A stretch of 20,000 bases of DNA from an uncultured virus (IMG/VR IMGVR_UViG_3300017728_001586) (IMGVR_UViG_3300017728_001586); one strand, 5' to 3'; positions 369-20,000 are shown, counted from the stretch's first letter. A program made the numbers and translations. The notes: generated by a model not told the origin, from the sequence alone.

Positions 369-1463
369 CTATTCGTCAAACGGCAAAGCAGGTACCTGAT
401 GAATTTTCTCAACTGTTGAACTATCTTTCTTAACAAAGACTTTAGTTGAAGCTTTTACAACACCATCACTATCTTTTATAAAGACTCCTTTCACTTTTGC
501 AACTGGCGTTATTGGTCGATTAGAGTTCTCTGTTGCTTGAAATATAAACGGAGACCTGAATCCATATGGTTGTTGTCTGTTTTGTTGAAAACTATAAGAC
601 GCCTGACCTTGTGCAATATATGGTTGTCGACCAATAGTAGGATTTCTGTAAATAGAAGGACTTCTATATGAGAAAGGATATGTAAATGGTTGCCTTCTAA
701 TAACAGGGTCTTGTCTATTGTGAGTATTAAGATATTGTGCGTTATGTGCTGAAGGTGTTCTCTTATTTCTAATATTAGGTTCTTGTTGACTTCTAATATT
801 AGGTTGTTGTTTATTTTTAAGCGCTTGTCTAATAGAAGGTGTTTGTGCGCTTCTAATATTAGGTTCTTGTTGACTCGCTGGTGTTCTTGTTATAGAAGGA
901 GTTTGTTTACTCGCTTGATAAGCAGACTGTTTGTTTCTTATAACAGATTCCTGTTTATTTTTAATAGTAGGTTGTTGTTGATTTCTAATAAAAGGATTCT
1001 GCGTATTCGCTTGTGCATCTGCGGTGTAAGGACTTTGAGCGCTTCTAATATTAGGTTCTTGAGCAGTCTGTTGGGCGCTTCTTATACTAGGCGCCTGTTT
1101 GTCTCTAATAACAGGTTCTTGTGCGTTTGCAGTATACGGAGTTTGATGAGCTCTTTCAAACGGATTTTGTCTGTTTCTAATATTAGGTTCTTGTTGATTT
1201 CTAATATTAGGTTGTTGATTACTTTCCTGCTGATTTCTTTCAAACGGATGTTGTTTGTTTCTAATATTAGGTTGTTGATTACTTTCCTGCTGATTTCTTT
1301 CAAACGGATGTTGTTTGTTTCTAATAACAGGTTGCTGTGCCTGATGCTGTCGATTTCTTTCAAACGGATGTTGTTTGTTTCTAATAACAGGTTGTTGCGC
1401 TGGTTGTTGCACCTGTGTAGCAATAGGATGTTGGTATATGGATGGTTGTTGTCCTACTGGCAT
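369..1463 (-). CDS. Q/N/R/P-rich repeat protein, 364 aa (NIRNKQQP-type repeats), putative fibre partner chain
   Basis: ORF with AGGAG SD 9 nt upstream of ATG. It has 8/12/6-residue Pro-terminated repeats and a short C-terminal beta-rich tail (VAKVKGVFIKD...KVFVKKD). Confidence 0.85.
   Translation of the reverse strand: MPVGQQPSIYQHPIATQVQQPAQQPVIRNKQHPFERNRQHQAQQPVIRNKQHPFERNQQESNQQPNIRNKQHPFERNQQESNQQPNIRNQQEPNIRNRQNPFERAHQTPYTANAQEPVIRDKQAPSIRSAQQTAQEPNIRSAQSPYTADAQANTQNPFIRNQQQPTIKNKQESVIRNKQSAYQASKQTPSITRTPASQQEPNIRSAQTPSIRQALKNKQQPNIRSQQEPNIRNKRTPSAHNAQYLNTHNRQDPVIRRQPFTYPFSYRSPSIYRNPTIGRQPYIAQGQASYSFQQNRQQPYGFRSPFIFQATENSNRPITPVAKVKGVFIKDSDGVVKASTKVFVKKDSSTVEKIHQVPALPFDE
1201..1396. 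repeat. 60-bp coding tandem repeat, about 3 copies (20 aa: NIRNKQHPFERNQQESNQQP)
   Basis: 1201-1260 and 1261-1320 are identical. 1321-1380 is a diverged third copy whose last 29 nt are identical to the others. Confidence 0.95.
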
Positions 1464-1469
1464 ATCACA

Positions 1470-3071
1470 TTACTCCTGGTTATTATCATCGTTTTCATCG
1501 TCTTCTGGTTCTTCGTTTTCGTAATACAGAGTCACTTTTAGCGATATTGTATGAGTTCCCATATTAGCATCTGGACTTGTAAATGTAAATGTATTAGTTG
1601 TCTCGTACTCCTTAACATCTCCACCGCTAGCATTATCACATTTCCACTTGGTAAAAGTACCATTAGTTGTACCAAAACTCCAAGAAGTGCTAGTTATTGC
1701 AGTGCCTGTAGAAATGTTTCCGCTCAGAGTACCCTCATTGAAGGTACCATGAGTAGAGGTACTTCTAGCAACAGAATAATTAGTTCCAGCATCGTCTATT
1801 TTGTATAGAAGAATAGCACTATTTGCATTAATGCTTTGCTGCTGACCATTTTGAGTACCGCCGGTATTTGTTTCTTCCAGATATGCATCAGCATTCTGTC
1901 CAGGTGGTATACCATCAGATGAAGCATAAACATATACATTAACATCATTACTTGATTCAACACAATATAATACAATCCAAGGTTCTAGACCGCTATGGTC
2001 CGAAACTGAAACCTCACAATGAACTTCAGTATATGGAGCAGTCGTAGTACCAATGTTTTGCTGTTGTAATTCACTAAAGATAAACGGTGTTCGTGCATTT
2101 CTTGAGTTTTGTGTATTGACAATTACTGGAGTTGTAAATGGTGACCTATGTTGGTAAATACTCGGCGATTGATGCTGATAAATTGACGGACTTCTAAATG
2201 GTGACCTATGCTGATAAGTACTTGGCGATTGATGCTGATAAATTGACGGACTTCTAAATGGCGACTGATGCTGATAAGTACTTGGCGATTGATGCTGATA
2301 AATTGACGGACTTCTAAATGGCGACTGATGCTGATAAATCAACGGACTTCTATGGTCATAAGTGTCTGGACTTCTATGTTGATAGATACTAGGTTCTCTA
2401 TTATCGTATGTAGAAGGTGACCTATGGTCATAGGTAAATGGTGACCTATGTTGATAAGTAAACGGACTTCTATAAGGCGACCTATGGTCATATATTAAAG
2501 GTTCTCTATTTTGATATGTAGAAGGTGTTCGAGAAGGACTTTGGTGGTTATATGTTGAAGGACTTCTGTGGTCATATGTAAAAGGACTTCTATGTTCATA
2601 TGTTAAAGGTTGTCTATTTGTATAGATGCTAGGCGTTCTAGTCTGAGTCGGTGTACGATATATCAAAGGACTTCTATGTTGATATGTAGAAGGTTCTCTA
2701 TGTTGATAATTTAACTGATAAGTAAACGGTGACCTATGTTGATATGTCAACGGACTTCCATGTTGATATGTAGAAGGTGTTTGAATATTGTATATTGAAG
2801 GCGCCCTACTTGTGTATATAGCAGGCGACCTGTGATTATAGGTTTTTTGTGCGACACCTTGAGCAATTATTGGATTTTGTGCATTACTAGGCGTCTGAAC
2901 ATTTGTAGGTGTTCTACTTTGATATGTAAATGGTTGTGTTCCTTGAGTAGTAACCTGATAAATTCTTTGTGCGATATTCGGTTGTTGACCGGCTGCAGGT
3001 ACTCTGGCTAAAAAGGGTTGCTGAAAAGTTCCACCATTCTTATCATGTTTTATAAAAATATCGTCTGACAT
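1470..3071 (-). CDS. Y/H/R/S/P-rich repeat protein, 533 aa (xTYQHRSP repeats, aa 20-329) with a C-terminal ~200-aa non-repetitive domain, putative fibre with tip domain
   Basis: About 40 Pro-terminated segments, all of even length (4/6/8/12/14/16), then a Ser/Thr/Gly/Asn-rich domain and an acidic tail. It lies directly downstream of a fibre-like gene. Confidence 0.85.
   Translation of the reverse strand: MSDDIFIKHDKNGGTFQQPFLARVPAAGQQPNIAQRIYQVTTQGTQPFTYQSRTPTNVQTPSNAQNPIIAQGVAQKTYNHRSPAIYTSRAPSIYNIQTPSTYQHGSPLTYQHRSPFTYQLNYQHREPSTYQHRSPLIYRTPTQTRTPSIYTNRQPLTYEHRSPFTYDHRSPSTYNHQSPSRTPSTYQNREPLIYDHRSPYRSPFTYQHRSPFTYDHRSPSTYDNREPSIYQHRSPDTYDHRSPLIYQHQSPFRSPSIYQHQSPSTYQHQSPFRSPSIYQHQSPSTYQHRSPFRSPSIYQHQSPSIYQHRSPFTTPVIVNTQNSRNARTPFIFSELQQQNIGTTTAPYTEVHCEVSVSDHSGLEPWIVLYCVESSNDVNVYVYASSDGIPPGQNADAYLEETNTGGTQNGQQQSINANSAILLYKIDDAGTNYSVARSTSTHGTFNEGTLSGNISTGTAITSTSWSFGTTNGTFTKWKCDNASGGDVKEYETTNTFTFTSPDANMGTHTISLKVTLYYENEEPEDDENDDNNQE
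1473..1477 (-). promoter_or_regulatory. Shine-Dalgarno (AGGAG) for the 364-aa gene
   Basis: Minus strand CAGGAG-TAATGTGAT-ATG. The SD lies in the last codons of the 533-aa gene. Confidence 0.75.
2135..2337. repeat. 60-bp coding tandem repeat, about 3.4 copies (20 aa: SIYQHQSPSTYQHQSPFRSP)
   Basis: 2161-2220 and 2221-2280 differ at 4 positions. 2221-2280 and 2281-2340 differ at 2 positions. Confidence 0.95.
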
Positions 3072-3081
3072 ATTTTGTTCA

Positions 3082-5514
3082 CTATATTAAAAAGAAAAGA
3101 TGACCTATCTCTTTTCCACTACCACTAGGAAGACCACTAGATAAATCTGAGTCTGTTATCACACTATAATCTAACTCTATGTCGTTACCATCTAGAGTGA
3201 TACCATTACTCACTGAAGCTTCTAATGTTATCTCACCATCTGTAGTTGTATTAGTACCACCGTCTGGATTATCATTGTAGGTGAGTTTTATACCTTTATT
3301 TAGTTCAACATTTGCAGTACCATTTTGAGCTATTGTTCCATCACCACTTGCATCGAACTTAAATTGTTTAGCGACTCTGTTGTCTGTAAAGAACACAGCA
3401 GAAGCGTCTTCAGTTAAATTACTAGTACTACCAGCTTGGTCACCAGGGTTCCAAGCAGAACCACTCCATATTAGTATTTGACCAGTACTTGCACCACTAT
3501 TGACATTTGCTAAATCTTCTAAGTCGATTGATGGTAAGTCTGATAGAGTTAAAGCAGTAAGAGTAGTTGCAATAGATACATTACCCTTTGCAGTCTGAGT
3601 CTGGGTACCAGTGACTGCACCTGTTAATGTGAAAGTTGAATTTGCAATTGTTAAATCTATTGTACCATCAGCGTCATCGTCATTGTAAGTTGCTGTAAGA
3701 CCTGTATGTGTACCATTGGTTGCAATCTGAGCACCAGTAATGTCTTGTACTTTCTCGGTGAGTGTGACATTTGACCATGAAGAACCAGTTTGAACTAAAA
3801 TTTGGTCATTAGTATTGTTTGCATCTGAAACATCGTATAAGTCATTTAGAGCAAGTTCGGTAGAAGTAATATCTCCTTTAGTCAAAGCTCTAAGAGTAGT
3901 TGCAATTGTCAAATTACCTTTTGCAGTCTGAGTAGCAGTACCTGTGACTCCACCTGTTAATGTGAAAGTTGAATTGTCTACTACTAGATTTGTTTTGCCT
4001 GTATCATCGTTGTATGTGACTGATAGACCTGTTTCAGTATTACCAGCGAACATTGCACCAGCGATATCTTCAACTCTTTCTCGCATGGGTGTGTTTTCCC
4101 ATTGGTCTGTGGTATCATTATACAGTAAAACATGGTCTTCTGCAAGCGCAATAGGATGGTCTACATTTGCAAGATAATCTATATTCTTTAATGCGATTCT
4201 AGCGTCTGCTCTTGCATCTGTATAATATAGATTAGAATTATGTTCTGTTAAGTTTTGTGTTGTGTGGTTTGCAATACTTGAAACTGTACCAGTCAAAGAA
4301 CCTGCGTTTGCATTACTGTCGTGGTCAGATGTTGTATCTAGTATTGTGTGAGTACCAGCAAAGTTTTTAATGTTATTAACTACAGAACTACCTGATTTGA
4401 ATACTGAGTTAGTATCACCTGTTATATCATCGACACTTGTAATGTCGCCACCAGTGATATTCAATGTACCATCTGTTAGAGTTCCTACTGTTGCAGTTCC
4501 TGATACATTTGATAAGTTTGAATATACATTTGACCATCTCTTTGATGTTAAACCCAATGAATATGTATTAGTTGTTTCTGGTCTTAGATGAGAGTTTGCA
4601 TAACCTGTGAATGTAATTGTATCACTAGCGGCATTACCTAATGTTGTGTTTCCGTCTACTGTAAGGTTTGCATTTAAGGTTGTATTATCAACTACTTGAA
4701 GTGTTGATTGCATATGCACATCACCATCAATGTCTACAGCATCTAAATGAGATGTACCATTTACATCGATGTCGCCTTCGATATCTAAGAATCCTGAGAA
4801 TGTTCCGTTGACTGCGCCTGTTATAGAACCACTGTTGATACTCATTGTAGAATCAGTGATAGTAGGTGCAGTTAGTGTCTTGCCTGTTGTGAGTAAGATA
4901 TCATCTTCTGCAAATGTCTTACCTGCAAGTTGTATTGTATATCCAGATTCTAGTAGAGTTGTTGGTGATGAACTATCTCCATTTATAATAACACCGTTTG
5001 CATTGGTGTTATAGATTGTGTTCTCAACTGTTTTCTGGAAGAATGATGCAACTGAGTTTGCAATATTTGTTCCTACAAATGCACCAGTGTATGAGTATAC
5101 ATGAAGTCTATCGTTAGTAGACATTGCATTTGCTTGACCAGATGCATAAGTACCTGTTAGTGTGATACCCTCATGCGAACCTGTACCAGTAGGATTAGAA
5201 ATAATGAAATCTACATCTTCTATCAAATGTCTTTCGTTTTTAAATACTTGAATCTTATCTTTTACAAAAATTAAGTTATTTGCAAACTCATCGTTACCTG
5301 TAAATAGTGTTTGGTTTGTTGATGCAACGAATACGAACTCTTGGAAGAAAAACTGTTTGTCTTCTAAAACATTGACAGCATCAACTAGTGTTCCGTTGTT
5401 TCCAGATTTTAATCCTTCTCTTAGACCAGAAACTTCACCCACATCATATGCGAGTTCGTTATAGGTAGTTCTAAAGTCTTCAATTGTTGCGAAGTTGTCT
5501 ACTGTTTTAGCCAT
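3082..5514 (-). CDS. Tail-fibre-like structural protein, 810 aa
   Basis: N-terminus T(I)EDFRTTYNEL resembles fibre attachment segments of marine T4-like phages. It is Thr/Gly/Asp-rich, with fibre-type motifs (NLTVDGNTTLGNAASDTITF; TQNLTEHNSNLYYTDARAD; LxDLxxV...QILxxxGSxW) and an internal duplication. Confidence 0.75.
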   Translation of the reverse strand: MAKTVDNFATIEDFRTTYNELAYDVGEVSGLREGLKSGNNGTLVDAVNVLEDKQFFFQEFVFVASTNQTLFTGNDEFANNLIFVKDKIQVFKNERHLIEDVDFIISNPTGTGSHEGITLTGTYASGQANAMSTNDRLHVYSYTGAFVGTNIANSVASFFQKTVENTIYNTNANGVIINGDSSSPTTLLESGYTIQLAGKTFAEDDILLTTGKTLTAPTITDSTMSINSGSITGAVNGTFSGFLDIEGDIDVNGTSHLDAVDIDGDVHMQSTLQVVDNTTLNANLTVDGNTTLGNAASDTITFTGYANSHLRPETTNTYSLGLTSKRWSNVYSNLSNVSGTATVGTLTDGTLNITGGDITSVDDITGDTNSVFKSGSSVVNNIKNFAGTHTILDTTSDHDSNANAGSLTGTVSSIANHTTQNLTEHNSNLYYTDARADARIALKNIDYLANVDHPIALAEDHVLLYNDTTDQWENTPMRERVEDIAGAMFAGNTETGLSVTYNDDTGKTNLVVDNSTFTLTGGVTGTATQTAKGNLTIATTLRALTKGDITSTELALNDLYDVSDANNTNDQILVQTGSSWSNVTLTEKVQDITGAQIATNGTHTGLTATYNDDDADGTIDLTIANSTFTLTGAVTGTQTQTAKGNVSIATTLTALTLSDLPSIDLEDLANVNSGASTGQILIWSGSAWNPGDQAGSTSNLTEDASAVFFTDNRVAKQFKFDASGDGTIAQNGTANVELNKGIKLTYNDNPDGGTNTTTDGEITLEASVSNGITLDGNDIELDYSVITDSDLSSGLPSGSGKEIGHLFFLI
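3440..4080 (-). repeat. Intragenic tandem duplication of about 108 aa in the fibre gene
   Basis: ERVEDIAGAM...NSTFTLTGGVTGTATQTAKGNLTIATTL versus EKVQDITGAQ...NSTFTLTGAVTGTQTQTAKGNVSIATTL. Copies start at 4080 and 3756 (324-nt offset). Confidence 0.9.
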
Positions 5515-5728
5515 GTAATTTCTCTACTATATCTTTTAATAAGTCTTTAATTTCTGTTACCTCTTTCTTAAGAGTATTTATTTCATTCTTTTGAGTTTTT
5601 AAAAACTCTCTTCTTCTCATTGTCAACCTATACTGTTCTTCGTTAGTATTGATAATGGCATGAGAGGATTCATCCCTAATTAGGTCTGAAAATCCTTCCA
5701 CTTTATGTACTATCTTACGCAAGAGCAA
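5507..5728 (-). CDS. Small conserved phage protein with C-terminal coiled coil (start codon uncertain)
   Basis: KVEGFSDLIRDESSHAIINT followed by heptad-like EINTLKKEVTEIKDLLKDIVEKL. I recall this gene type following VrlC-like genes in marine T4-like phages. Its stop overlaps the ATG of the fibre gene. Confidence 0.8.
   Translation of the reverse strand: MLLRKIVHKVEGFSDLIRDESSHAIINTNEEQYRLTMRRREFLKTQKNEINTLKKEVTEIKDLLKDIVEKLHG
5575..5582 (-). promoter_or_regulatory. Possible late promoter (AATAAATA) about 60 nt upstream of the fibre gene
   Basis: 7/8 match to TATAAATA inside the small gene. It could be chance in AT-rich DNA. Confidence 0.35.
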
Positions 5729-8700
5729 TACACCTCAATGCAGTCACTAGTGGTACAATCGAAGTATTACTTGATTGACCAACTATCTTAACTACAAAAC
5801 CTGTGAACTCTGGTAAACCTTCAGCAGTATATTCATACTCTTTAAAGTTTCTTGCATCTTTTTCGGTCACCACATCTGGTTCTCCATCTCCATTGAAGTA
5901 TTCGAACCCTAAGTCATCGATAGGTGTTGTCTCGTCATTCTTTAATATCTTAAACATGAATTTTAAATCAGATTCAGGTGGTCTATAGTTATCTGCAATA
6001 ACTTTCAATGTAGTTGCAGGATTCTTAAGATTCACTTTTCTAGTGATATAGACCATGGCGTTATTATCGCCATCTGGATCAGTTGAAGGCACATGAATCA
6101 TAGAACCAGTTGAACCACCAGGTAGGTCATTAGCAGAATCAATATTATTGATTCTATTCATGATACCCAAACAACCAATCGTACCAATATCAATTACTGG
6201 AGATAAGTTCTGGTTAGCACTAGTAAACTGTAATCTACATTCAAATGATTTATTATTTGTGCCACCAGTCTGTTCTTCTGATTCATTAATACTCGATGCG
6301 ATAATACTAGGTCTTTCGAAATAGTTATTGTCATTTAATGTAATGAATTCATTCTTTGAGCGTAATGTAAATGTTGAATCTAAATTATTATCTTCAGGTG
6401 AATTAGTTCCTGTTCTTCTAACACTTGACAATAATGTTGTGTCTTTATATGTTAAAGAAGGTATCATTGTATGCAATACATCATAGTACATGTTAGTAGT
6501 TGCATATGCTTGGTCACCACCAGCAATAGTTGATTCAACTGCATTGGTATATGATAAGTGATATGATGATAAGTCTGGTGTACATGCAAATGAGTCGATA
6601 CCATAATTATTGATACTACTGAATACTTTATTAATTGAATCTACAGGGAAACCACCCAATGTATCTCCAACACTTGATAATGTTATAGTTGCATTGTTTG
6701 AACCATCATAGTTATTAATAGTGATAGATTCGTTTGCAGTATAACCTACACCTGGGTCTTTGATTGTCACTGAACTAATTTGATTTCCACTATTAACTGT
6801 TATTGTATCAATCTTAAGTCCTGTACCAGTACCACTGTAGGTATATCCTGTGGAATCCCAATTGGCGCCACTATTGTTATATGTACCAGCAGTTGGAGTT
6901 CCTGTTGTTGAACCTGCTACAGTTAATACACCATTCTTCTTATCTCCTTCTACGCCATATATAACAACATTCGATTGATTGTCGTACATACCATGTGAGT
7001 AAGAGTATACTCTAAAGAATGATTGATTAGAAAAAGTTTCTATTGAATTATTCTGCAATTTCTTAGGTGGTAAATGTGCGTTGTTAAACACGATGTTTGC
7101 AGCTGTAGTTGTATTAAACTTAGCGACTCTCATATTAAACTTCAAGTCATCTGTTTGTTCTGCTGTCCATGTAGATGCGTTCTGAGACATGAACAATGAA
7201 CCAGCGTATGGTTGTCCTGATATTGTCTGTCCAGTAATTAAATCTGTTTCGCCCATTCTGGAAATGAAACACTCGTAATCTGTTGAGTTAGTATACACAA
7301 CAAAACAATATTCATGTTTGTCTTCTAGGTATACAGGTGACTCAAATGTAAATGTAGTTGCGGATGAACCATCATCTGAAGTATTGACTTCATCTGGATT
7401 CTTTGTCACAATTGAGAATGGTATAGTTGTCTGTCCTGGATATCCATTTATCATATTTCTGATTTCTACTGATACAGGTAAACTAGTTGCCTTACTCTTA
7501 AAGAATACATCTATAGATGTTAGGAACATACCGCCATCAGATTCTACCATGAATGATTCTGCTAATGGGTCTTGCCAACCTCTTGGTTCTACTGGAATAT
7601 CAAAGTCAAATATTCTTCTGTCTTCTCTTGGAAGAACCATTAAATCAGCGGGTGGGAACCTTGGAGGTAATGGTACAGGAGGTGGTACAGGAACAGGCAC
7701 CGGCGGTGTAGGCACAGGCACAGGTACCGGAACTGGTACAGGGACTGGCACAGGCACAGGCACCGGATTCGGCACTGGCACATATACCGGAGTTGGTGGC
7801 ATAGGTGGTGGTGTCGGTGGTATTGGTGGAGGCGGCGCAATAGGTGGTGGTGGGGGTGGTAATGAACCATCTCCTGTCACATTTAATCTTTCACCTCTTC
7901 TTGTAATTGTTCTTTCGCCTGATAATCTTTCTGTCACCACTCTACCATTTCTAGTAGATACTATTTCTGTTTGTGAACTATTTAAGAGACCTTGTGCTTG
8001 ATAAATCTCTGCACCCATTGAATCTGGATTACTTTGATTCGATGACTGAGATGTTATCTTTAATTCTCTTTGTCCTGTTGGGAATCTTTGGAAGTTGTCA
8101 TTAGGTATTAAGAACTTACATTCTACTTTACCATTACCATTTGTTTTTATTCCAACACCCTTGTTTGTTGTTCCGTCTTGTGAGAAGTCAGCACTACTAG
8201 GTGTGACATAACCATCTACTCTGATACCATCAAAGTATACAAAGTGTTTTGTGTTTGGTTTTAAGTTAGTTCCTACTGCGGTTATCTCTCTACTTCTAAT
8301 GAAAGGTATAACACTGACACTAACAACTCTATCGTTTCTTGTTTCTACAAAGTCTTCAACTACTGAAGTATTAACACCTTGTCTTGATTGAATTTCTGGT
8401 GTTTCGGTAATCTCTGTTGTTATGATTGTACCTTGAACCCATTCACCACCTTGAGCAGGGTCACCAGACCAATTGCCAGGAACAGCTGCATCTACTGAAG
8501 AACTAACTACGGTTGGTTCACCAACCCATGTTGTCTGCCAGTTATTCCATATTGTTCCAAGTGAGTTTTGATTCTCTGCAAGAACAGCGTCAAAGTTTCC
8601 TTCTCTGTTGATTCTAACTTCTGGTAATTGTTCTGTATCATTCCATATATCAGAACCAGGAGTTAATTTGACATTACCTATAAATGCAAATACATGATAT

Positions 8701-11700
8701 GGATTAACATTGACATGTCTAGATGCCTTATCCTGATTTACATATGATACTTGTGAGTAAGGTAATGTAATTAAATCACCAGTCTGCTGATAACCAGTTG
8801 AACCAGATGCATTTAATTCTATATCAAAGAAGTTTGATACTGATTCTGGTCTTAATTGTCCCAATTTAGTATCTATACCAACATGATAATCAGGATGAGA
8901 TACATCACCAATTTTGTGACCTCTGAAGTTATCTACTAAGAAACCAGATTTGAATCTATCGAAACCTTGTGCATCTAATATCTGTTTTGTTTGTGTGTCT
9001 TTCTCTAATAAAGACAATGCAGTAATTCTTTCTAAGTTTGTGACTCTCTGATTGATTTTACCAATGTCGCCCATTGTAAATCTTCTGTAGTCTTTTGTTT
9101 TTACTTGTATTTGTTTTACATTTCTTGTAAATGCAGGTATAAACAATTCGAACATTTCTAAAGAATCATCAATTGAATTTGGTCTTTGTGGTGTTAAGGT
9201 CGGATTACCTTGTGCAACTTCGAATTTACCACTTCTATGTAAGAATACTTTATCGATTCTAGGCACATAGAACTCTATGTTTGACTTAATCATTGATGTT
9301 GGCAAAGGACATCTTGAATATGATGCATGTGCTGTCGTAATATCAGCAGTAGATACTCCTAATAGATTATCTCTAGAGGATTCAAAACTTCTTGCTTCAT
9401 ATGCAAATGGAGATATTAAGTGACCTGTACCATCACCACTACTGTAGTCTGATACATCTAATATACTTGCAATATTGAATACATAACTCTGACTAACTAA
9501 ATCTGCATTACCAAATAGTTGACCAACTGATGGTCTAAAGTCTACTGCATCTGCAAGTTCAAATTGTCCATCTGGTTCAAAACCACCCAAGTCTACTTTG
9601 TTTGGTGAGAAGTTAGGAATGTCTTTATATGAAATACTATTTGTATATGAATTTACATCATAGAAATCACCAGAACCACCTACAAACATATCAAATAATA
9701 CTGTTATTTGATTATTTGGTGTTGTCTGTCCTTGTTTTAAAATAAGTTTTGCGTGGTCATAATAACCATCTCTTTGACCATTGTCTAAAGAGTATCTATT
9801 TGTTATTTCAGGAGATTGAACTCCTAATGATGTTATGGTTGCAATTCCACCTGTTGTTTCATCTACTACTGTTTCGCCTGCGGTAAACTTTTCGGTTCCT
9901 AAGTAGTAAAAATAACATGTTTGCGTATCAGTAAACTTCATAAGTTTAGCACGAACACCTGTTGTAGCACCTTTAATTATATTTCCTGTTGTACTTGTAC
10001 CAGATGTTAGAGTTATAACTGCATTTGGTGGTGTTGCAACACCACTTGTATCTGTTCCTGGAACTGCCTCAAATATGCCTCTGATTTTGTATACATCTGA
10101 AACACCAAGAGATAGTTCTTTGTAGTCATATGCAGTACCATAGAATGGATTATCTGCATGTGCATCGTTCTTAGTGAATCTTAATGCACGAAACTCTCTT
10201 AAGTTCTTTGATTTCGATGTTGGGTTAGTGACACTAACTGTATATGTCGCCCTTACGATTGCACCATCGTCAGCAGCTGCACCCAATACAACTTCACCAG
10301 ATGATGTATTGACTGAAGAGACATCATCGCCTCCTAATACTACACCATTAGCTCTTGTTGGACTTCCTGTCGCTTCTTTGACAATTGCGAACTGATAGTT
10401 GTCGTTGTTTTTTGGTTCAAATGATTCGTTTGCTTCTTTTGTGAGTGTTATCTCACCAGAAGTACCAACTTCAAATTCTTTTTGATACTTAACTGTAATC
10501 TCTGTAGGTGTTGATTTACTTACATGGTCTCTAGGGAATGCAAATACTGTAGCAGATTGGTCTTGATTGTAAAGTTTTGCTCTTCGTCTGAGTAGTCCAA
10601 CTTGTTTAATGTTAGTTCCGGCAGCAACTAGTGTTGCATTTGAATTGTCTGTCACGGATGCAATAAGTTGTTCAGCACCATTACCATCTAAGACTATATC
10701 ACCCTTTCTTAGTTCAGTCAAGAAATCAGTACCAACACCTGTTAAAGCTGTACTAGTTATTGTTGTTAGACCCGATATAACTTTGTCGTTGTCTAATGCA
10801 ATATTGGCAGTAAAGTTTTGTGTTCCTGTTGTTTCAGAAGACTTAGTTTGACCAACACTTCTTGCATCTTCTACTTGAAAACTACGAACAGCAGTAATAC
10901 TAAAATCTACTTTTACTTTACCTGTTCCAGTTCCTGCAGCTGCAGCCGTGAAAGTAGAACCTACTGCGTATGTCTGACCAGAAGTGCCTGCGGCCGTATT
11001 CCACTGTGCTTGAGTTGTGTTTCCAAGTTCCGTTATTATATATGGAGTAGTTGAAACAAAACTTCCAGCATTGACTATAATCGTACCGCATGTACCTTGT
11101 CCCTTTAGTGAAAGGGTATCTGTTGTTTTGAATGTACCAACAACATCATGTACCATAATATGATTGTTTGTAGTATCTGCATATGCAACAATACCTACTG
11201 CGCCAGATGCTGAACCTGTGACTTTATCACCAACTTTGAAGTTGTTTGTCGCAACTGTAGTACTTAACATTGTGAACATCTTGATATCAAATAGATATAG
11301 ATTTTCAAAAGCAGTTGAGTGTTCGTCAATGTTTCTTACTCTTGCAAAACCGATATGACCAACTGTTGTTGTTGATCCAGTGCCTGCATATGCATTAAGT
11401 GTGCCTGGTGTTGCAGTTGCCTTATCAAATAGTTGAATTGCTTTATATGATTCTGTATTTGTAGAATCACCAAACTCTGGTTGACCATGTGAATCTTTAA
11501 TTCTTAATTTGTTTCCTAGTCTTGCAGGTGTGTTTGCGTTTGTAAGCGCCTCTGTTGTTCTTGCCTTGTTTAATGTTAAATTCGTTGTGCCTGTTTTATC
11601 AATAGAGTAACCTTTAACATATGCTTTACCAGGAGAGACTTGCATAACAAATTGACTCTCATCTCCACCTTGATACGCTTCATAGAATCCTCTATTGAAT

Positions 11701-12701
11701 CCGTCTAGTAAATGTTCTCTAAATGAATGTGTGAATTGTCGTATTACAAAATCACCATTCGCATCAAATGTTCTTTGTGCAAGTGTGTTTTCTATATGAT
11801 TGTATACTGGTCTTTTTACTTCTAATTCTATAACACCATTACTAACTCTTCCCAACTCTACAAAGTTTGTATCTGTTGTAGCAGTTAGTGCGAACTTAGC
11901 AAGTGTTAATGTGAACTTAAGTCTATCTGCACCAGCAGCGTTTTCATTTGTTGTTCCTTGTGAATTGTCTAGTAGAGTTGTATCAGTGCCAGAACCAACA
12001 AGTTCTTCTACAATGTCTAGACCAATTCTATAAGAAGGTTTACCATTATACTTTTCTAATACAATTGTTTGTGCATCTACTTTGACGAAGTATCCTCTTA
12101 AGAATACAACACCCTCATTTATACTTGCAATAGATGAACGGCCGACTGGTGAAAGACCAAGTGCAGCTACTTTGAATTCATTGTTATTTGATGCAGTGGT
12201 TATTGCACCAGCGGCACTAACATTAACTTCACTTATCTCTTCAGAAGGACTAAATCTTTCTGAAGGATTTGTTGTTGCAGTTTCGTCTGTACCATGTTGT
12301 AAATATCTTACAATAATAGTTGCTAAATCTGTTCCTGTAGATGCAACTGTTTTTACTATCTCTGCAACGACTCCAGTTGTCTCTCCTTGAATTAGTTTAC
12401 CTGTGAAACCACTTAGATATGTAGCGACATCAGCTGTTCCAGTAGAGTTAGGATTAGTTGCCTCGACTTTAACATATTCGACATCCATATCGATGTCTGT
12501 CTCTGCACCATTGACAATCGAACCCTCTTTGAACATGTGACTACCAAATTTTTGTATTTGGTTTTGTAAGATTGATTGTGACTGAGTTAGTTCTCTTGCC
12601 TGTAGGGGTCTACCTGCTCTGAAGAGTACTTTGTGATAATTGTTATCCTCATTGTAGTCATCGTAGTATGGTGATATATTTAAGTCTGTTTTTTCTGACA
12701 T
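5715..12701 (-). CDS. Large virion structural protein, VrlC-like / DUF4815 family, 2328 aa
   Basis: Characteristic N-terminus TDLNISPYYDDY...YHKVLFRAGRPLQARELTQSQSILQNQI. Internal motifs ENAAGADRLK, GKAYVKGY, DRFKSGFLVDNF, NVNPYHVFAF and DPLAESF. It follows gp8. Confidence 0.88.
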   Translation of the reverse strand: MSEKTDLNISPYYDDYNEDNNYHKVLFRAGRPLQARELTQSQSILQNQIQKFGSHMFKEGSIVNGAETDIDMDVEYVKVEATNPNSTGTADVATYLSGFTGKLIQGETTGVVAEIVKTVASTGTDLATIIVRYLQHGTDETATTNPSERFSPSEEISEVNVSAAGAITTASNNNEFKVAALGLSPVGRSSIASINEGVVFLRGYFVKVDAQTIVLEKYNGKPSYRIGLDIVEELVGSGTDTTLLDNSQGTTNENAAGADRLKFTLTLAKFALTATTDTNFVELGRVSNGVIELEVKRPVYNHIENTLAQRTFDANGDFVIRQFTHSFREHLLDGFNRGFYEAYQGGDESQFVMQVSPGKAYVKGYSIDKTGTTNLTLNKARTTEALTNANTPARLGNKLRIKDSHGQPEFGDSTNTESYKAIQLFDKATATPGTLNAYAGTGSTTTVGHIGFARVRNIDEHSTAFENLYLFDIKMFTMLSTTVATNNFKVGDKVTGSASGAVGIVAYADTTNNHIMVHDVVGTFKTTDTLSLKGQGTCGTIIVNAGSFVSTTPYIITELGNTTQAQWNTAAGTSGQTYAVGSTFTAAAAGTGTGKVKVDFSITAVRSFQVEDARSVGQTKSSETTGTQNFTANIALDNDKVISGLTTITSTALTGVGTDFLTELRKGDIVLDGNGAEQLIASVTDNSNATLVAAGTNIKQVGLLRRRAKLYNQDQSATVFAFPRDHVSKSTPTEITVKYQKEFEVGTSGEITLTKEANESFEPKNNDNYQFAIVKEATGSPTRANGVVLGGDDVSSVNTSSGEVVLGAAADDGAIVRATYTVSVTNPTSKSKNLREFRALRFTKNDAHADNPFYGTAYDYKELSLGVSDVYKIRGIFEAVPGTDTSGVATPPNAVITLTSGTSTTGNIIKGATTGVRAKLMKFTDTQTCYFYYLGTEKFTAGETVVDETTGGIATITSLGVQSPEITNRYSLDNGQRDGYYDHAKLILKQGQTTPNNQITVLFDMFVGGSGDFYDVNSYTNSISYKDIPNFSPNKVDLGGFEPDGQFELADAVDFRPSVGQLFGNADLVSQSYVFNIASILDVSDYSSGDGTGHLISPFAYEARSFESSRDNLLGVSTADITTAHASYSRCPLPTSMIKSNIEFYVPRIDKVFLHRSGKFEVAQGNPTLTPQRPNSIDDSLEMFELFIPAFTRNVKQIQVKTKDYRRFTMGDIGKINQRVTNLERITALSLLEKDTQTKQILDAQGFDRFKSGFLVDNFRGHKIGDVSHPDYHVGIDTKLGQLRPESVSNFFDIELNASGSTGYQQTGDLITLPYSQVSYVNQDKASRHVNVNPYHVFAFIGNVKLTPGSDIWNDTEQLPEVRINREGNFDAVLAENQNSLGTIWNNWQTTWVGEPTVVSSSVDAAVPGNWSGDPAQGGEWVQGTIITTEITETPEIQSRQGVNTSVVEDFVETRNDRVVSVSVIPFIRSREITAVGTNLKPNTKHFVYFDGIRVDGYVTPSSADFSQDGTTNKGVGIKTNGNGKVECKFLIPNDNFQRFPTGQRELKITSQSSNQSNPDSMGAEIYQAQGLLNSSQTEIVSTRNGRVVTERLSGERTITRRGERLNVTGDGSLPPPPPPIAPPPPIPPTPPPMPPTPVYVPVPNPVPVPVPVPVPVPVPVPVPTPPVPVPVPPPVPLPPRFPPADLMVLPREDRRIFDFDIPVEPRGWQDPLAESFMVESDGGMFLTSIDVFFKSKATSLPVSVEIRNMINGYPGQTTIPFSIVTKNPDEVNTSDDGSSATTFTFESPVYLEDKHEYCFVVYTNSTDYECFISRMGETDLITGQTISGQPYAGSLFMSQNASTWTAEQTDDLKFNMRVAKFNTTTAANIVFNNAHLPPKKLQNNSIETFSNQSFFRVYSYSHGMYDNQSNVVIYGVEGDKKNGVLTVAGSTTGTPTAGTYNNSGANWDSTGYTYSGTGTGLKIDTITVNSGNQISSVTIKDPGVGYTANESITINNYDGSNNATITLSSVGDTLGGFPVDSINKVFSSINNYGIDSFACTPDLSSYHLSYTNAVESTIAGGDQAYATTNMYYDVLHTMIPSLTYKDTTLLSSVRRTGTNSPEDNNLDSTFTLRSKNEFITLNDNNYFERPSIIASSINESEEQTGGTNNKSFECRLQFTSANQNLSPVIDIGTIGCLGIMNRINNIDSANDLPGGSTGSMIHVPSTDPDGDNNAMVYITRKVNLKNPATTLKVIADNYRPPESDLKFMFKILKNDETTPIDDLGFEYFNGDGEPDVVTEKDARNFKEYEYTAEGLPEFTGFVVKIVGQSSNTSIVPLVTALRCIALA
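7651..7860 (-). repeat. Low-complexity poly-Pro / (VP)n coding tract
   Basis: PPPPPPIAPPPPIPPTPPPMPPTPVYVPVPNPVPVPVPVPVPVPVPVPTPPVPVPVPPPVPLPPRFPP. The DNA is locally GC-rich with imperfect 6-bp periodicity (ggcaca/ggtaca). Confidence 0.95.
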
Positions 12702-12755: not shown

Positions 12756-14258
12756 TTACATTTCAATAATTAGTTTAATATCTTCAATTTGGTCAGCGGC
12801 TCTTGAAACTGCGCCTCTATTTTCAACATAGAGAATTTGACCTGTAAATCTTTGCATTTCTGGATGAGCAGAAGAGACACCAGATGCGGTAACATCAGCA
12901 ACTTTTGTGCCAGCTTTATAGACTTCATCATCATTTGCAAATGCGATATATTCGCCACCTGAATTAGCAACAGGTAAGGTTTTTAGAGTATTACTTGTCT
13001 TAGATACAACTCTTACTTTAGCAGTGGTTGCTGATTCAGATGAAGCATCTGTAAGTAAGTCATCAACATTAATTGAAGAAGCATTATCAACTGTCAACAT
13101 ATTTGTTGCAGTCATTGTTGCATCTCCAGAAACAGCACCAGATGATGCTTTTACTGGATTCTTAATAAGACCAATTCTTCTGAAGTCATTGTCTGTTGGG
13201 AAATCACTAAACCCACCATCAAGACCTTCACCAAACTCTAATCTAGAGTTTACGATTGCATAGTTACCACCCATTTCTTCGATAGGGTTAGCACCATGAC
13301 CATTAATTGGCGACATTATAATATGAACTGTAGCACCTGAACCACCTGCAATACCTGAAACATTGGAGTCTAATGTAGGTAATGATGCTCTTTTATAACC
13401 TGTTCCCCAATAACTAGTACCAGAACGATGATATGCTTGTTTTAAATTACCTGAAACGAAACTTAAAGTGACTTCTGCACCAGAACCATCTCCCTGTACA
13501 GGAACATTAACTGTAAATGTATTTGATGAACCACTTGTGTAACCAGAACCGGCAGCGGTTACGACATAATGATAAACTGCGCCGTCTACGGCAGCGTTTT
13601 CAACATCCCATTGAGCAGAACCATCATCATCAGCAGTTGAACCAAACCCACCATTTGTACCAGAACCTACTACAGCAGATTTAGCACCAAGTGATTTTAC
13701 TGGTATAAAGTCGTTAGTGACAAACTTAATAACATCTGAAGCGGTAACTGAGTACATAAATTTCCACATATATCCTAAAGATGCATTTGCATCTGCGGTC
13801 ACTTCAGGAACTGTTGTTGAAATAGTTATTGGTTTAACTGTAGAATTTATAGTTGCACCATTTGAATCAACACCTGTTCTTAAACATTTGTATACTTTAA
13901 ATTCGTCTGTAATTACATAACCTCTTCCATCGAAGAAGTTAGATACATTTGTGACATTGGTTGTATTGGAAGCAGAATAGTTATCTCTGTATTCATCATA
14001 CTTAGTACCATCTGTCCAATTATATCTTACCAATCCATGTGAGATATCAGTTGAAGCGACTGCCTTTAGGGCAATCATGTCTTCATATACACCGATTTCT
14101 TCTGATTCTGAGTTTGCAGGAGGAGGTGGTTGTGTGTCATCTGCCCATGCATGTGAACGACCAATAAAGACATAGTTCTTTTGACCACTCTCTGAGAAGT
14201 CTTCAATGAACTGCCTTGCATTGTGCGTTCTAAATTTTTCTGTGATTATTGCTGCCAT
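12756..14258 (-). CDS. gp8: Baseplate wedge subunit, T4 gp8-like, 500 aa
   Basis: MAAIITEKFRTHNA N-terminus, YVFIGRSHAW, RYNW..G..YDEY, VYKCL, GYMWKFMY, NDFRRIGLIKNP and the C-terminal GQILYVENR...RAADQIEDIKLIIEM are typical of marine T4-like gp8. Synteny is gp6-gp7-gp8. Confidence 0.92.
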   Translation of the reverse strand: MAAIITEKFRTHNARQFIEDFSESGQKNYVFIGRSHAWADDTQPPPPANSESEEIGVYEDMIALKAVASTDISHGLVRYNWTDGTKYDEYRDNYSASNTTNVTNVSNFFDGRGYVITDEFKVYKCLRTGVDSNGATINSTVKPITISTTVPEVTADANASLGYMWKFMYSVTASDVIKFVTNDFIPVKSLGAKSAVVGSGTNGGFGSTADDDGSAQWDVENAAVDGAVYHYVVTAAGSGYTSGSSNTFTVNVPVQGDGSGAEVTLSFVSGNLKQAYHRSGTSYWGTGYKRASLPTLDSNVSGIAGGSGATVHIIMSPINGHGANPIEEMGGNYAIVNSRLEFGEGLDGGFSDFPTDNDFRRIGLIKNPVKASSGAVSGDATMTATNMLTVDNASSINVDDLLTDASSESATTAKVRVVSKTSNTLKTLPVANSGGEYIAFANDDEVYKAGTKVADVTASGVSSAHPEMQRFTGQILYVENRGAVSRAADQIEDIKLIIEM

Positions 14259-18691: not shown

Positions 18692-20000
18692 TTAATAATT
18701 TGTACTAGATGTAGATACGAAACCTACCCCAGCACTACTCTCACCACTACTAATGGTGTCGACTTCGCCACTAACCCTAATGTCGTCAATGCTGATGTCA
18801 ACTAGAGAACCCCTAATTGCAACAACATCACCACTTGAAGGTATAACAGTGAAGTCTATCGATGTGTCACTATTTACTGTTGAAGTAAATTTGATGGCAT
18901 CAATCGAAATCTTTCCACTGGCATAATCTATAGTACCAGCACTTTGGTCTGCGAACACTCTTGTACCACTATCTAATGAATATCGTCTGACATTACCAGA
19001 ACCGTCATCATCAAAGAAGTAGGTATTGACTATATCGCCCTCGACCTTAAAACCTGTTGATGTTAAAATGCCCCCAGCAGCCTTGTTATGGCCGTCATGA
19101 GGATGATAAAAACCATTTCCGAAGATAACATTAAAACCTTCTGTAAGGCTTATCTTAAGATGTTTTCGTTTTTGCAATCTAACATTGGTCACATTGGATA
19201 GTATTGCAACATTCGTTTCATCAATCGCCTTGGCGAGATTTGAATGTCTGAATATACTATCGAAGTTGTTTAAATTTGTATTATCAAAAGAGACTATGCC
19301 ATTTCTTACTATGGTTTCTAACTCTCCTTTTGATAATGTAGTATCTGCTTCGTTATATTTGAATACAGTAGTCAATAGAATTTTAACTATCTCTGCATCT
19401 ACAATTACAGGTCTAACAGTCAACATATTAAGTTGATTCAATTTATTCTGTACTTGATTTTTTTCTACAGTTGATAAGTAATCTGAATTTTGTGGTTTAA
19501 GTGTTATGAATACTTTACCATACTCAGGTGGATCGTTGTCTTCACCACCCCATACTGCAACTGCATCAGCGTTGGGATAGTATTCTTGTACCTTTGCTTT
19601 ATAGTCATTCAATGTGACTAATCTATTTTGTGATGTATAGAACTTTGTTGCTTTGAACTTAATTGATTCGATAGATTCTTTCTCTGCACCGCCACCAGCA
19701 ATCGTCAAAGTCGTGATAGTAGCGTTTGAGAATCCATTGATTGTATCTGTAGATGTGAATATTTTTGCACCATCAGCATGAATATCATCAACTGCAATAT
19801 AAGTGGCACTTATAACATCGCCATCATTCAAACCATTGCCCAATACACCATCACCAAAGTATATCTCAATAAAACCCTCTTCGTTTTCTTGTGCATAGAA
19901 TACACGAGATGAACTTGTAATTGTTGACACTTCTGTTGAGAGTGAATACTTTGATACTGAACCGTTTGAGTTTACAGATATTTCTAATCTGGATTTATCA
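18692..20000 (-). CDS. gp6: Baseplate wedge subunit, T4 gp6-like, 5' part outside the window
   Basis: EIYFGDGVLG, GGAEKESIESIKF, QNRLVTLNDY, VWGGEDNDPPEYGKVFI and GTIDYASGKI motifs. The frame stays open from the GTG at 19930 to the window edge (DKSRLEISVNSNGSVSKYSLSTEV), so the true start is upstream. Confidence 0.95.
   Translation of the reverse strand, partial: DKSRLEISVNSNGSVSKYSLSTEVSTITSSSRVFYAQENEEGFIEIYFGDGVLGNGLNDGDVISATYIAVDDIHADGAKIFTSTDTINGFSNATITTLTIAGGGAEKESIESIKFKATKFYTSQNRLVTLNDYKAKVQEYYPNADAVAVWGGEDNDPPEYGKVFITLKPQNSDYLSTVEKNQVQNKLNQLNMLTVRPVIVDAEIVKILLTTVFKYNEADTTLSKGELETIVRNGIVSFDNTNLNNFDSIFRHSNLAKAIDETNVAILSNVTNVRLQKRKHLKISLTEGFNVIFGNGFYHPHDGHNKAAGGILTSTGFKVEGDIVNTYFFDDDGSGNVRRYSLDSGTRVFADQSAGTIDYASGKISIDAIKFTSTVNSDTSIDFTVIPSSGDVVAIRGSLVDISIDDIRVSGEVDTISSGESSAGVGFVSTSSTNY

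Follow-up and report, generated by a model that had tools for sequence, protein, structure and literature searches.

Within a 20,000-nucleotide stretch of DNA from an uncultured virus (IMG/VR IMGVR_UViG_3300017728_001586; the whole stretch is called the window here), two adjacent genes on the minus strand, A and B, encode proteins that consist largely of proline-delimited repeats. The two repeat regions mirror each other in antiparallel orientation, and the two chains probably pair to form the shaft of a thin phage fibre. A preliminary description of this DNA had proposed a complementary pairing code between the chains. Its open reading frames (ORFs) and every motif it quoted were recovered in place when the chains were split after each Pro, and the interval that it marked, 513-3014, approximates both repeat regions.

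Gene A (1470-3071, minus strand) is an ORF for a Tyr/His-rich chain of 533 residues, with syntenic orthologues in IMG/VR loci. Its N-terminal cap (residues 1-18, MSDDIFIK...QQP; 3018-3071, minus) is conserved among relatives of the window type, called type 1 below; M1, S2, I5, F6, Q17, Q18 and P19 are invariant in the alignment of A relatives, and the start of the cap recurs in L051, L052, L057 and P0026. The repeat region (residues 19-329, 311 residues; 2085-3017, minus) contains 41 Pro and consists chiefly of units of the form x(T/I)Yx(H/N)(R/Q)(S/E)P, together with units of 4, 6, 12 and 16 residues; Tandem Repeats Finder gives periods of 24 and 60 nucleotides for its DNA. The C-terminal non-repeat domain (residues 330-533; 1473-2084, minus), a candidate distal tip, ends in an acidic tail and is modelled by AlphaFold2 (AF2) as all-beta with low confidence. 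It has near-identical relatives only (one cluster among 5.8 billion proteins; six IMG/VR loci at 84-100% identity). In locus L037 the repeats are 90% identical to those of window A and the C-terminal domain is unrelated, and further unrelated domain types are found in other relatives.

Gene B (369-1463, minus) is an ORF for a chain of 364 residues rich in Asn-Ile-Arg and Gln. Its repeat region (residues 7-317, likewise 311 residues; 513-1445, minus) contains 35 Pro, with units chiefly of the forms (N/V)IRxxQxP and FERNQQESNQQP and Tyr-type units toward its C-terminal end. The coding unit for Pro-Asn-Ile-Arg, CCTAATATTAGA, occurs in seven copies at 768-1271 (minus), against 0.02 expected, and its antisense frame also reads Asn-Ile-Arg. 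The small C-terminal domain of B (residues 318-364, AKVKGVFIKD...EKIHQ; 372-512, minus) may form the proximal end of the fibre together with the N-terminus of A. It is conserved, with A322, K323-I329, D331, G334, K353 and H355-P358 invariant in alignment A2 and conservation also in alignment A4, and AF2 predicts four short strands at 327-353 with a predicted local distance difference test score (pLDDT) of 50-61. A representative search among 1.84 billion proteins gave 80 clusters related to B at E<=1e-3, part of them spurious low-complexity matches; P0040, P0052, P0055, P0062 and P0081, which gave long matches, were rejected as unrelated low-complexity proteins.

At the junction of the two genes (1461-1480, minus) the A stop codon is followed after 6 nucleotides by the B start codon, with AGGAG within the last A codons, and in L039, L041 and L043 the stop and start overlap, which together suggests that translation of A and B is coupled. 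Contigs from three RNA libraries of three studies cover parts of A, B and the junction, where DNA carry-over is possible. Long plus-strand ORFs over both genes (for example 783-1541) are by-products of the repeats.

Periodicity and register of the window pair

Spacings between consecutive prolines in the repeat regions are all even, in 40 of 40 cases in window A, 34 of 34 in window B and 46 of 46 in the A chain of L039 (2 to 24 residues). Every homologue examined behaves likewise, with odd spacings confined to the borders of the repeat regions; 28 representative pairs contribute 2442 consecutive even spacings within parity-defined runs, which are even by construction. The residues are sorted by phase accordingly: Pro, Gln, Arg, Thr, Ile and Asn occupy one phase, and the other takes every Tyr, Phe and His (in A, 30, 10 and 20, respectively) and most Ser and Ala. 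Gly is rare, with four in the A region and three in the B region. A two-residue period that runs on unbroken for 311-465 residues is characteristic of an extended beta strand without phase-shifting turns, and the periodicity to be expected of an antiparallel beta-ladder is thus present.

When the two window chains are aligned antiparallel without gaps at shift 0, so that A residue i stands opposite B residue 336-i, 31 of the 35 prolines of the B repeat region fall on prolines of A, and 30 co-terminous blocks tile the whole 311-residue region. Shuffling the Pro-delimited segments of B and taking the best score over all shifts gives 15.5±1.8 coincidences with a maximum of 22; the value of 31 was not attained in any of the 300 shuffles. 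In parallel orientation the window pair reaches at most 21 coincident prolines, and at the second-best antiparallel shift 22. Smoothed tracks of aromatic and cationic residues, scanned over odd shifts only, anticorrelate at full overlap with r=-0.75 (null -0.42±0.09; 0.5% of 200 shuffles were as low), and the best parallel track correlation, r=-0.38, was not significant. Parallel pairing, which reached at best 17-46 coincident prolines as against 30-64 in antiparallel orientation, was rejected, as was self-pairing, which scored below hetero-pairing in all nine pairs tested.

The details of the register agree with the preliminary description. Its central octads (S/F/L)(T/I)YxH(R/Q)SP stand opposite (N/V)IRxxQxP octads. 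Near one end the roles swap, with TNVQTP, SNAQNP and IIAQGVAQKTYNHRSP of A facing TIGRQP, SIYRNP and VIRRQP+FTYP+FSYRSP of B. The claimed identical end caps are also present: AAGQQP (A26-31) lies within a block that faces FIFQATENSNRP (B306-317), and VGQQP (B3-7) stands opposite PFIFS (A329-333). Since almost all units of A are of the Tyr type and almost all units of B of the Arg type, the facing of Tyr and Arg in the centre of this pair would hold in any alignment. What is not trivial in the window pair is the proline register, the equal lengths of 311 residues, the exchange of roles near one end and the end caps, which are identical.

The mirror rule and the unit code in related pairs

Scans of IMG/VR yielded 234 matching stretches, from which 65 loci with 41 unique adjacent gene pairs were kept. 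The nearest record, a 60-kb contig (G001), has 95% of the sampled window words in common with the window and carries a second pair about 10 kb past the window's low end (L017:8954-12563, minus), with products A' of 700 and B' of 488 residues. Both of its repeat regions are 465 residues long, and all 56 prolines of the B' region fall on prolines of A', which has 67. The gapless one-to-one antiparallel correspondence of a beta-ladder is therefore found in both pairs of this phage, in 30 blocks over 311 residues and in 55 blocks over 465 residues. The same gapless alignment gives 33 coincident prolines in L039 (45 in A, 39 in B), 32 in L041 (43 and 40) and 30 in L043 (45 and 37). Over seven pairs the shuffle null lay at 15-25±2, and in each of them none of 300 shuffles reached the observed value. 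In every one of the 41 unique IMG/VR pairs, the antiparallel alignment scores above the parallel one and above the second-best shift. It does so too in L109, a pair with reversed gene order in which 24 of 26 prolines coincide. L109 was the sole match in 185,579 species genomes and lies on a 121-kb contig labelled as a Sphingobacteriales metagenome-assembled genome, with phage fibre genes as neighbours; probably a bacterial bin took in a phage contig here, and the label would then say nothing about the host.

The second-best antiparallel shift is always -8 and never +8 in the window pair, in L039, L041 and L043 and in the second pair. The window scores 22 at this shift, and the scores at -8 and +8 are 44 and 33 in the second pair, 24 and 19 in L039, 22 and 20 in L041, and 22 and 18 in L043. 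This asymmetry could mark a second interface or could follow from 4+8 units facing 12-residue units.

The lengths of the partner repeat regions co-vary (Pearson r=0.949; 28 representative pairs, 199-543 residues). Sixteen of the 28 pairs match within 12 residues and five are identical, namely the window pair (311/311), the second pair (465/465), L052 (223/223), L072 (425/425) and L096 (269/269). Antiparallel scoring picks out the cognate B as the top partner of 24 of the 28 A chains. The window pair and the second pair, which belong to one phage, are orthogonal, with cross scores of 19 and 18 as compared with cognate scores of 31 and 56. Between the window and L024 we counted 13 facing co-substitutions where 5.9 were expected (P=0.002), among them Gln to Arg in A with Glu to Ile in B (three times) and Ser to Phe with His to Glu (twice). 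The repeat lengths themselves are reproducible: five of six IMG/VR loci have 533/364 residues (in one of the five, A is truncated) and L024, the remaining locus, has 529/364. At least 93% of the sampled words are present in 14 DNA runs from 14 studies, and no indels were listed in the four DNA runs compared. The identical lengths in separate contigs, the words in 14 runs and the lack of listed indels argue that the repeats are not an assembly artefact.

Which units face each other was counted in 899 co-terminous blocks from 25 representative pairs. Tyr-type units face Arg-type units of equal length 362 times and like faces like 25 times, a hetero fraction of 93.5% at the best shift, as against 77.5% in alignments shifted by ±8 or ±16 and 49.7% in non-cognate pairs. 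The most frequent block is a Tyr-type octad facing an Arg-type octad (360 of 899), followed by a VSAQEP-type 6-mer facing an FTYRNP-type 6-mer (198), a YPYIANAQEP-type 10-mer facing an FTYARQGQTP-type 10-mer (67) and a YIANAQQP-type octad facing a Tyr-type octad (62). Arg-type units face each other in a single block and Tyr-type units in 24, of which 23 are 6-mers.

The preliminary description had suggested tabulating cross-strand residue pairs over homologues, and in such a tabulation specific opposite pairs are indeed enriched: in 367 Y8:R8 blocks, His faces Arg 316 times, Arg faces Ile 334 times, Ser faces Asn 297 times and Thr faces Gln 265 times. Residue choice at position 1 of Tyr units is linked to that at position 7 of the Arg units opposite (Phe:Gln 101, Leu:Glu 58, Ser:Thr 29, Ala:Thr 23). 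The counts support an antiparallel cross-chain recognition code as such, the physical contact being what we infer from them, and they change its form in three respects. The code had been described as one of two motifs; more than two take part, and units in the length classes of 4, 6, 8, 10 and 12 residues also face units of their own class. Of the contacts suggested, Tyr/His against Arg/Asn/Gln, that of His holds, since His directly faces Arg, but Tyr faces a small residue, mostly Ala (161) or Gln (83). The placement of the two motif types on separate chains is correct for the window lineage but not beyond it: distant relatives interleave both types in both chains and keep the mirror complementarity, so that the segregation is a peculiarity of this lineage. 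One unit repertoire is common to A and B, and each begins with GQQP and ends with R(S/T)PFIF; the suggested descent of both chains from one self-complementary ancestor is, to judge from the sequences, plausible.

Genomic setting and a second type of pair

The window is a baseplate and fibre module of a T4-like myovirus, with every gene on the minus strand. In gene order, a gp6-like wedge protein (18692-19999) comes first, followed by a 162-residue protein, a 1268-residue wedge-like protein, gp8 (12756-14258; PF09215 Gp8 at 2.5e-19), a giant structural protein of 2328 residues with DUF4815 at 8e-63 (5715-12701), a 73-residue virion protein and an 810-residue fibre-like gene (3082-5514) directly upstream of A, which has no Pfam or PHROG family. 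The T4-like tail and baseplate context is borne out by PF21387 Gp6_C-I (27.2 bits, cut-off 27), Gp8, DUF4815, phrog_219, phrog_438 and phrog_358, and the window gp8 is 31-34% identical to gp8 of pelagiphages, Methylophilales phages and cyanomyophages. Within the DUF4815 protein, residues 1613-1684 (7650-7865, minus) form a 72-residue stretch of nearly pure Pro and Pro-Val repeats that coincides with a local G+C peak of 0.41-0.42.

A and B thus stand between the fibre-like gene and a 110-residue gene (19-351, minus) that matches phrog_1084 and phrog_3304, the latter labelled 'L-shaped tail fiber protein assembly'. This last gene follows B in every type-1 locus seen, with the same synteny in L032, L037, L039, L041 and L043. 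The second pair, too, has a related fibre gene before it, and fibre-like genes flank the repeat genes on both sides. The fibre-like genes upstream of each pair (810 residues at window 3082-5514; 884 residues at L017:12596-15250) have internally repeated segments in common and belong to no family. The pair accordingly has what is expected of a fibre or receptor-binding protein, namely a place among fibre genes, a conserved N-terminal end and an exchangeable C-terminal domain.

Family searches placed the chains in no described fibre family. A, B and five homologues matched no Pfam or PHROG family; A scored 17 bits against PF21786 Bflower_3 (gathering threshold 34), with no stretch passing alone. 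A sequence search of the PDB found no relative of A or B, and the ESM Atlas gave only a cluster of viral 'hypothetical protein' entries at 0.77, without a model. Megablast and tblastn searches with A and B against 50,697 phage records, run with a low-complexity filter that may hide repeats, gave no match, and a pair of the A/B type was not found in the syntenic region of Pelagibacter phage Mosig; no relative from a cultured phage came to light. The literature within reach of the search, which did not extend to subscription journals, held no paper with the motif strings or with such a pair, and nothing relevant on heterodimeric antiparallel beta-ribbon fibres, octapeptide repeats of phage fibres or proline-rich repeats of cyanophages.

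The second pair of G001 represents another type, and both types occur together on at least 11 further IMG/VR contigs. In type 1, A has the short N-terminal cap and the C-terminal domain and B the hairpin domain. In type 2, A' has a conserved Trp-rich N-terminal domain of 54 residues and B' a conserved short tail at its C-terminus, both again located at the same physical end. BLASTP found no similarity between the C-terminal domain of B and the N-terminal domain of A'; an hhalign match of 23 columns (E=3e-4, probability 39%) is suggestive only.

Some A' chains (G001, L076, L086, L096, L109) and the type-1 A chain P0026 carry a C-terminal Hint/intein-like module, which window A lacks. The module is preceded by a Gly run (eight Gly in A' of G001) or an acidic tail, and C11, D78/H80/P81 and H168/N169 are invariant in its alignment, corresponding to Cys1, the TDxHP block and the terminal His-Asn. 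Its profile matches PDB entries at 1e-5 to 8e-3, including the bacterial intein-like (BIL) domain 2lwy (2.2e-5) and DnaB inteins, and scores below Pfam gathering thresholds (Intein_splicing 31.3 versus 35.8 bits; Hint 21.2 versus 29.7). His-Asn is followed by Phe or Tyr in place of a +1 nucleophile, so that the module is predicted to be self-cleaving, and canonical splicing is not expected. The Gly run followed by a Cys start, the TDxHP block and the His-Asn end are shared with Hint and BIL domains; the missing nucleophile, the sub-gathering score and the position at the end of a fibre-like repeat chain set the modules of A' and P0026 apart. In the part of the literature that was accessible, we found no description of a Hint or BIL domain in such a position.

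Directly downstream of the type-2 pair in G001 (L017:1011-8916) and in the distant L109 (5811-9238) lie genes for a GT8-like glycosyltransferase (24.4 bits, cut-off 24.3), a protein of 183 or 187 residues and 2OG-Fe(II) oxygenase-family proteins. Conceivably, the GT8-like and 2OG-Fe(II) products modify the Pro/Ser/Tyr-rich chains, for instance by hydroxylation or glycosylation.

A proposed two-chain fibre and its alternatives

We consider it likely, from the sequence evidence above, that A and B form a 1:1, antiparallel, in-register two-chain beta-ladder and that this ladder is the shaft of a thin fibre of a T4-like marine myovirus, conserved at its proximal end and bearing an exchangeable domain of A at its distal end. 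In such a heteromeric ladder each A residue i (19-329) would stand opposite B residue 336-i. One face or edge would be formed in both chains by Pro, Ile/Thr, Gln/Asn and Arg/Gln, which would make the pseudo-symmetric pairs Ile/Thr:Arg/Gln, Gln:Asn and Pro:Pro. On the opposite face, Tyr-type units would present Tyr, Phe, His and Ser, and Arg-type units Arg, Lys, Ala and Glu; here the facing-residue counts combined with beta geometry suggest the pairs His:Arg, Tyr:small and Phe/Leu:Gln/Glu, and Arg residues as the diagonal neighbours of Tyr. Prolines facing prolines would occupy non-hydrogen-bonded positions, at which the missing NH would cost nothing, and would block the outer edges against sheet growth. 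The irregular order of units of 4, 6, 8, 10 and 12 residues could then act as an address that fixes a single register and a single partner. At about 0.33 nm per residue, the extended duplex would measure about 100 nm for 311 residues and about 150 nm for 465. Its proximal end in the virion would combine the conserved N-terminus of A with the conserved C-terminal hairpin domain of B, and at the distal, host-binding end the exchangeable C-terminal domain of A would lie beside the N-terminus of B. The exchange of this domain between chains whose repeats are 90% identical fits the fibre logic of a proximal anchor and a distal host-binding tip.

Several observations weigh against this ladder. Ten of the 41 prolines of A stand opposite residues other than Pro, and both faces of the ladder would be polar; to our knowledge, there is no solved precedent for a long isolated two-stranded ribbon. 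The AF2 monomers have a mean pLDDT of 28.1 (A) and 36.7 (B), and their repeat regions are coil without strands. Among the 28 representative pairs, 12 differ by more than 12 residues in crude run length, and the cognate B is not the top partner in four (L064, L069, L081, L097). In L064 and L069 the A' and B' repeat regions differ by 56 and 76 residues and those of related contigs are matched; these mismatches may be assembly collapses, errors in ORF starts, recombinants or real mismatches. Facing co-substitutions between the window and L037 are no more frequent than expected (2 versus 2.5), and the pairs are related by descent, which means that counts over pairs are not counts of independent events.

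The same ladder might also be part of a closed multi-strand assembly, such as a six-stranded needle or tube of three A and three B chains around a threefold axis, in which each strand has two partners and, as in the gp37 needle, outgoing and returning strands lie side by side, here on separate polypeptides. Phage fibres are generally trimeric, and in T4 the gp37 needle is six-stranded and antiparallel; Pro takes only about a quarter of the residues of its phase, which would leave the edge able to bond, and the constant second-best shift of -8 could be a second interface. Yet that shift may follow simply from 4+8 units opposite 12-residue units, neither face is hydrophobic enough for a buried core, HxH metal motifs are absent, and the data require no more than two strands. 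We regard this assembly as unlikely, while giving it more weight than the other alternatives. B could instead be a stoichiometric template or chaperone that keeps A extended and is absent from the finished virion, in the role of the fibre chaperones of T4 and lambda. Chaperone genes are common downstream of fibre genes, and the order fibre gene, A, B and a 110-residue gene whose PHROG has a fibre-assembly label would suit such a role. It is made improbable by the residue-by-residue match of B to A over 311-543 residues with co-varying lengths and by the conserved terminal domain that B has of its own; moreover, in type 2 the terminal domain is on A' and not on B', yet at the same physical end, which points to a joint end structure, the similarity being weak.

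Two further readings dispense with the beta-ladder itself. The chains might pair antiparallel and in register in another extended structure, for example one rich in polyproline II, as a Pro every 4-12 residues, the polar composition and the strandless AF2 repeat regions might suggest. The strict two-residue period with a gapless one-to-one match is, however, a beta-strand signature, and the three-residue period of polyproline II clashes with spacings that are only even from 2 to 24, which leaves this reading a slim chance. Least probable of all is that the chains do not interact and are disordered low-complexity proteins, with the mirror as a by-product of repeat evolution or of symmetry at the DNA level. 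The AF2 coil and the seven copies of the near-palindromic unit CCTAATATTAGA in gene B are in keeping with it, but no genetic mechanism or duplication writes a protein backwards. It is very unlikely in view of the controls, as shuffled segments never reached the observed values (0/300 in each of seven pairs), non-cognate pairs fall to about 50% hetero and partner lengths are correlated (r=0.95). A Pro codon read in reverse complement specifies Gly, Arg or Trp and never Pro; an origin from reverse-complement DNA was therefore rejected on the genetic code. Nor can the near-palindrome put Pro opposite Pro.

The proposed two-chain ladder can be taken one step further, to a protein counterpart of the nucleic-acid duplex: two chains would zip antiparallel over 170-540 residues into a two-stranded beta-ribbon with partner and register coded by Pro-bounded units, of which those equal in length and opposite in type pair. 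The Gly run and Hint domain of some members, located at the meeting point of the A' C-terminus and the B' N-terminus, may process this distal end or even staple both chains into one covalent hairpin. We offer this wider statement tentatively, as quite possible and short of what we would lean towards. If it is true, one virion can carry two orthogonal duplexes of different length (here 311 and 465 residues), and the A and B genes must expand and contract together. Should the pairing be real, it would be a protein architecture without a described counterpart, a very long beta-strand hetero-duplex that needs no hydrophobic core and whose specificity can be read from sequence much like base pairing. 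For phage biology, it would mean a fibre of a new type, its distal domain open to exchange, in a widespread group of uncultured marine myoviruses (the 234 IMG/VR stretches; seawater metagenomes of 14 studies). It would further provide a clean case of co-evolution between two genes at the level of residues, units and lengths, and protein designers would gain natural beta-zipper pairs that are orthogonal to one another and programmable in length. With i+j=336, the register rule makes a precise prediction.

Among known systems, the needle at the tip of the T4 long tail fibre, formed by gp37, is a long, thin, all-beta antiparallel structure with the receptor-binding part at its far end. It resembles the proposed fibre as an antiparallel element of a T4-like fibre with outgoing and returning strands side by side. 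The two strands of gp37 are parts of a single chain, in a homotrimer whose core binds metal ions on HxH motifs, whereas the two directions are separate gene products here, without HxH and with Pro-delimited complementary units; no sequence relation was found. T4 gp5C is a triple-stranded beta-helix of octapeptide VxGxxxxx repeats and shares with A and B the eight-residue repeat, the alternation of inward and outward residues across units and the place in a T4-like tail structure. It is a parallel homotrimer with a fixed period of eight and a Gly kink, in contrast to the even units of 2-24 residues, the lack of a Gly kink and the antiparallel match between two chains in A and B. A triple-stranded beta-helix of the gp5C type was rejected for the window chains, in which units range from 4 to 24 residues, Gly is rare and no constant octapeptide with Val in first and Gly in third position is present; collagen-like repeats were rejected on composition and on the even-only periodicity, Gly not occurring at every third residue. 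Designed and minimal beta-hairpins and the single-layer sheet of OspA are solvent-exposed two- or three-stranded antiparallel structures without a hydrophobic core and with cross-strand pairs that include aromatic/cationic ones. They extend over 10-30 residues within one chain, as compared with 311-543 residues between two chains and a natural unit code in A and B. Finally, in heterotrimeric collagen, antiparallel coiled coils and, by analogy, nucleic-acid duplexes, as in the pairs described here, a periodic sequence sets partner and register, lengths are matched and orthogonal pairs coexist; collagen and coiled coils do so with periods of 3 and of 3.5 or 7, and A and B with the two-residue period of a beta strand and Pro-bounded units of variable length.

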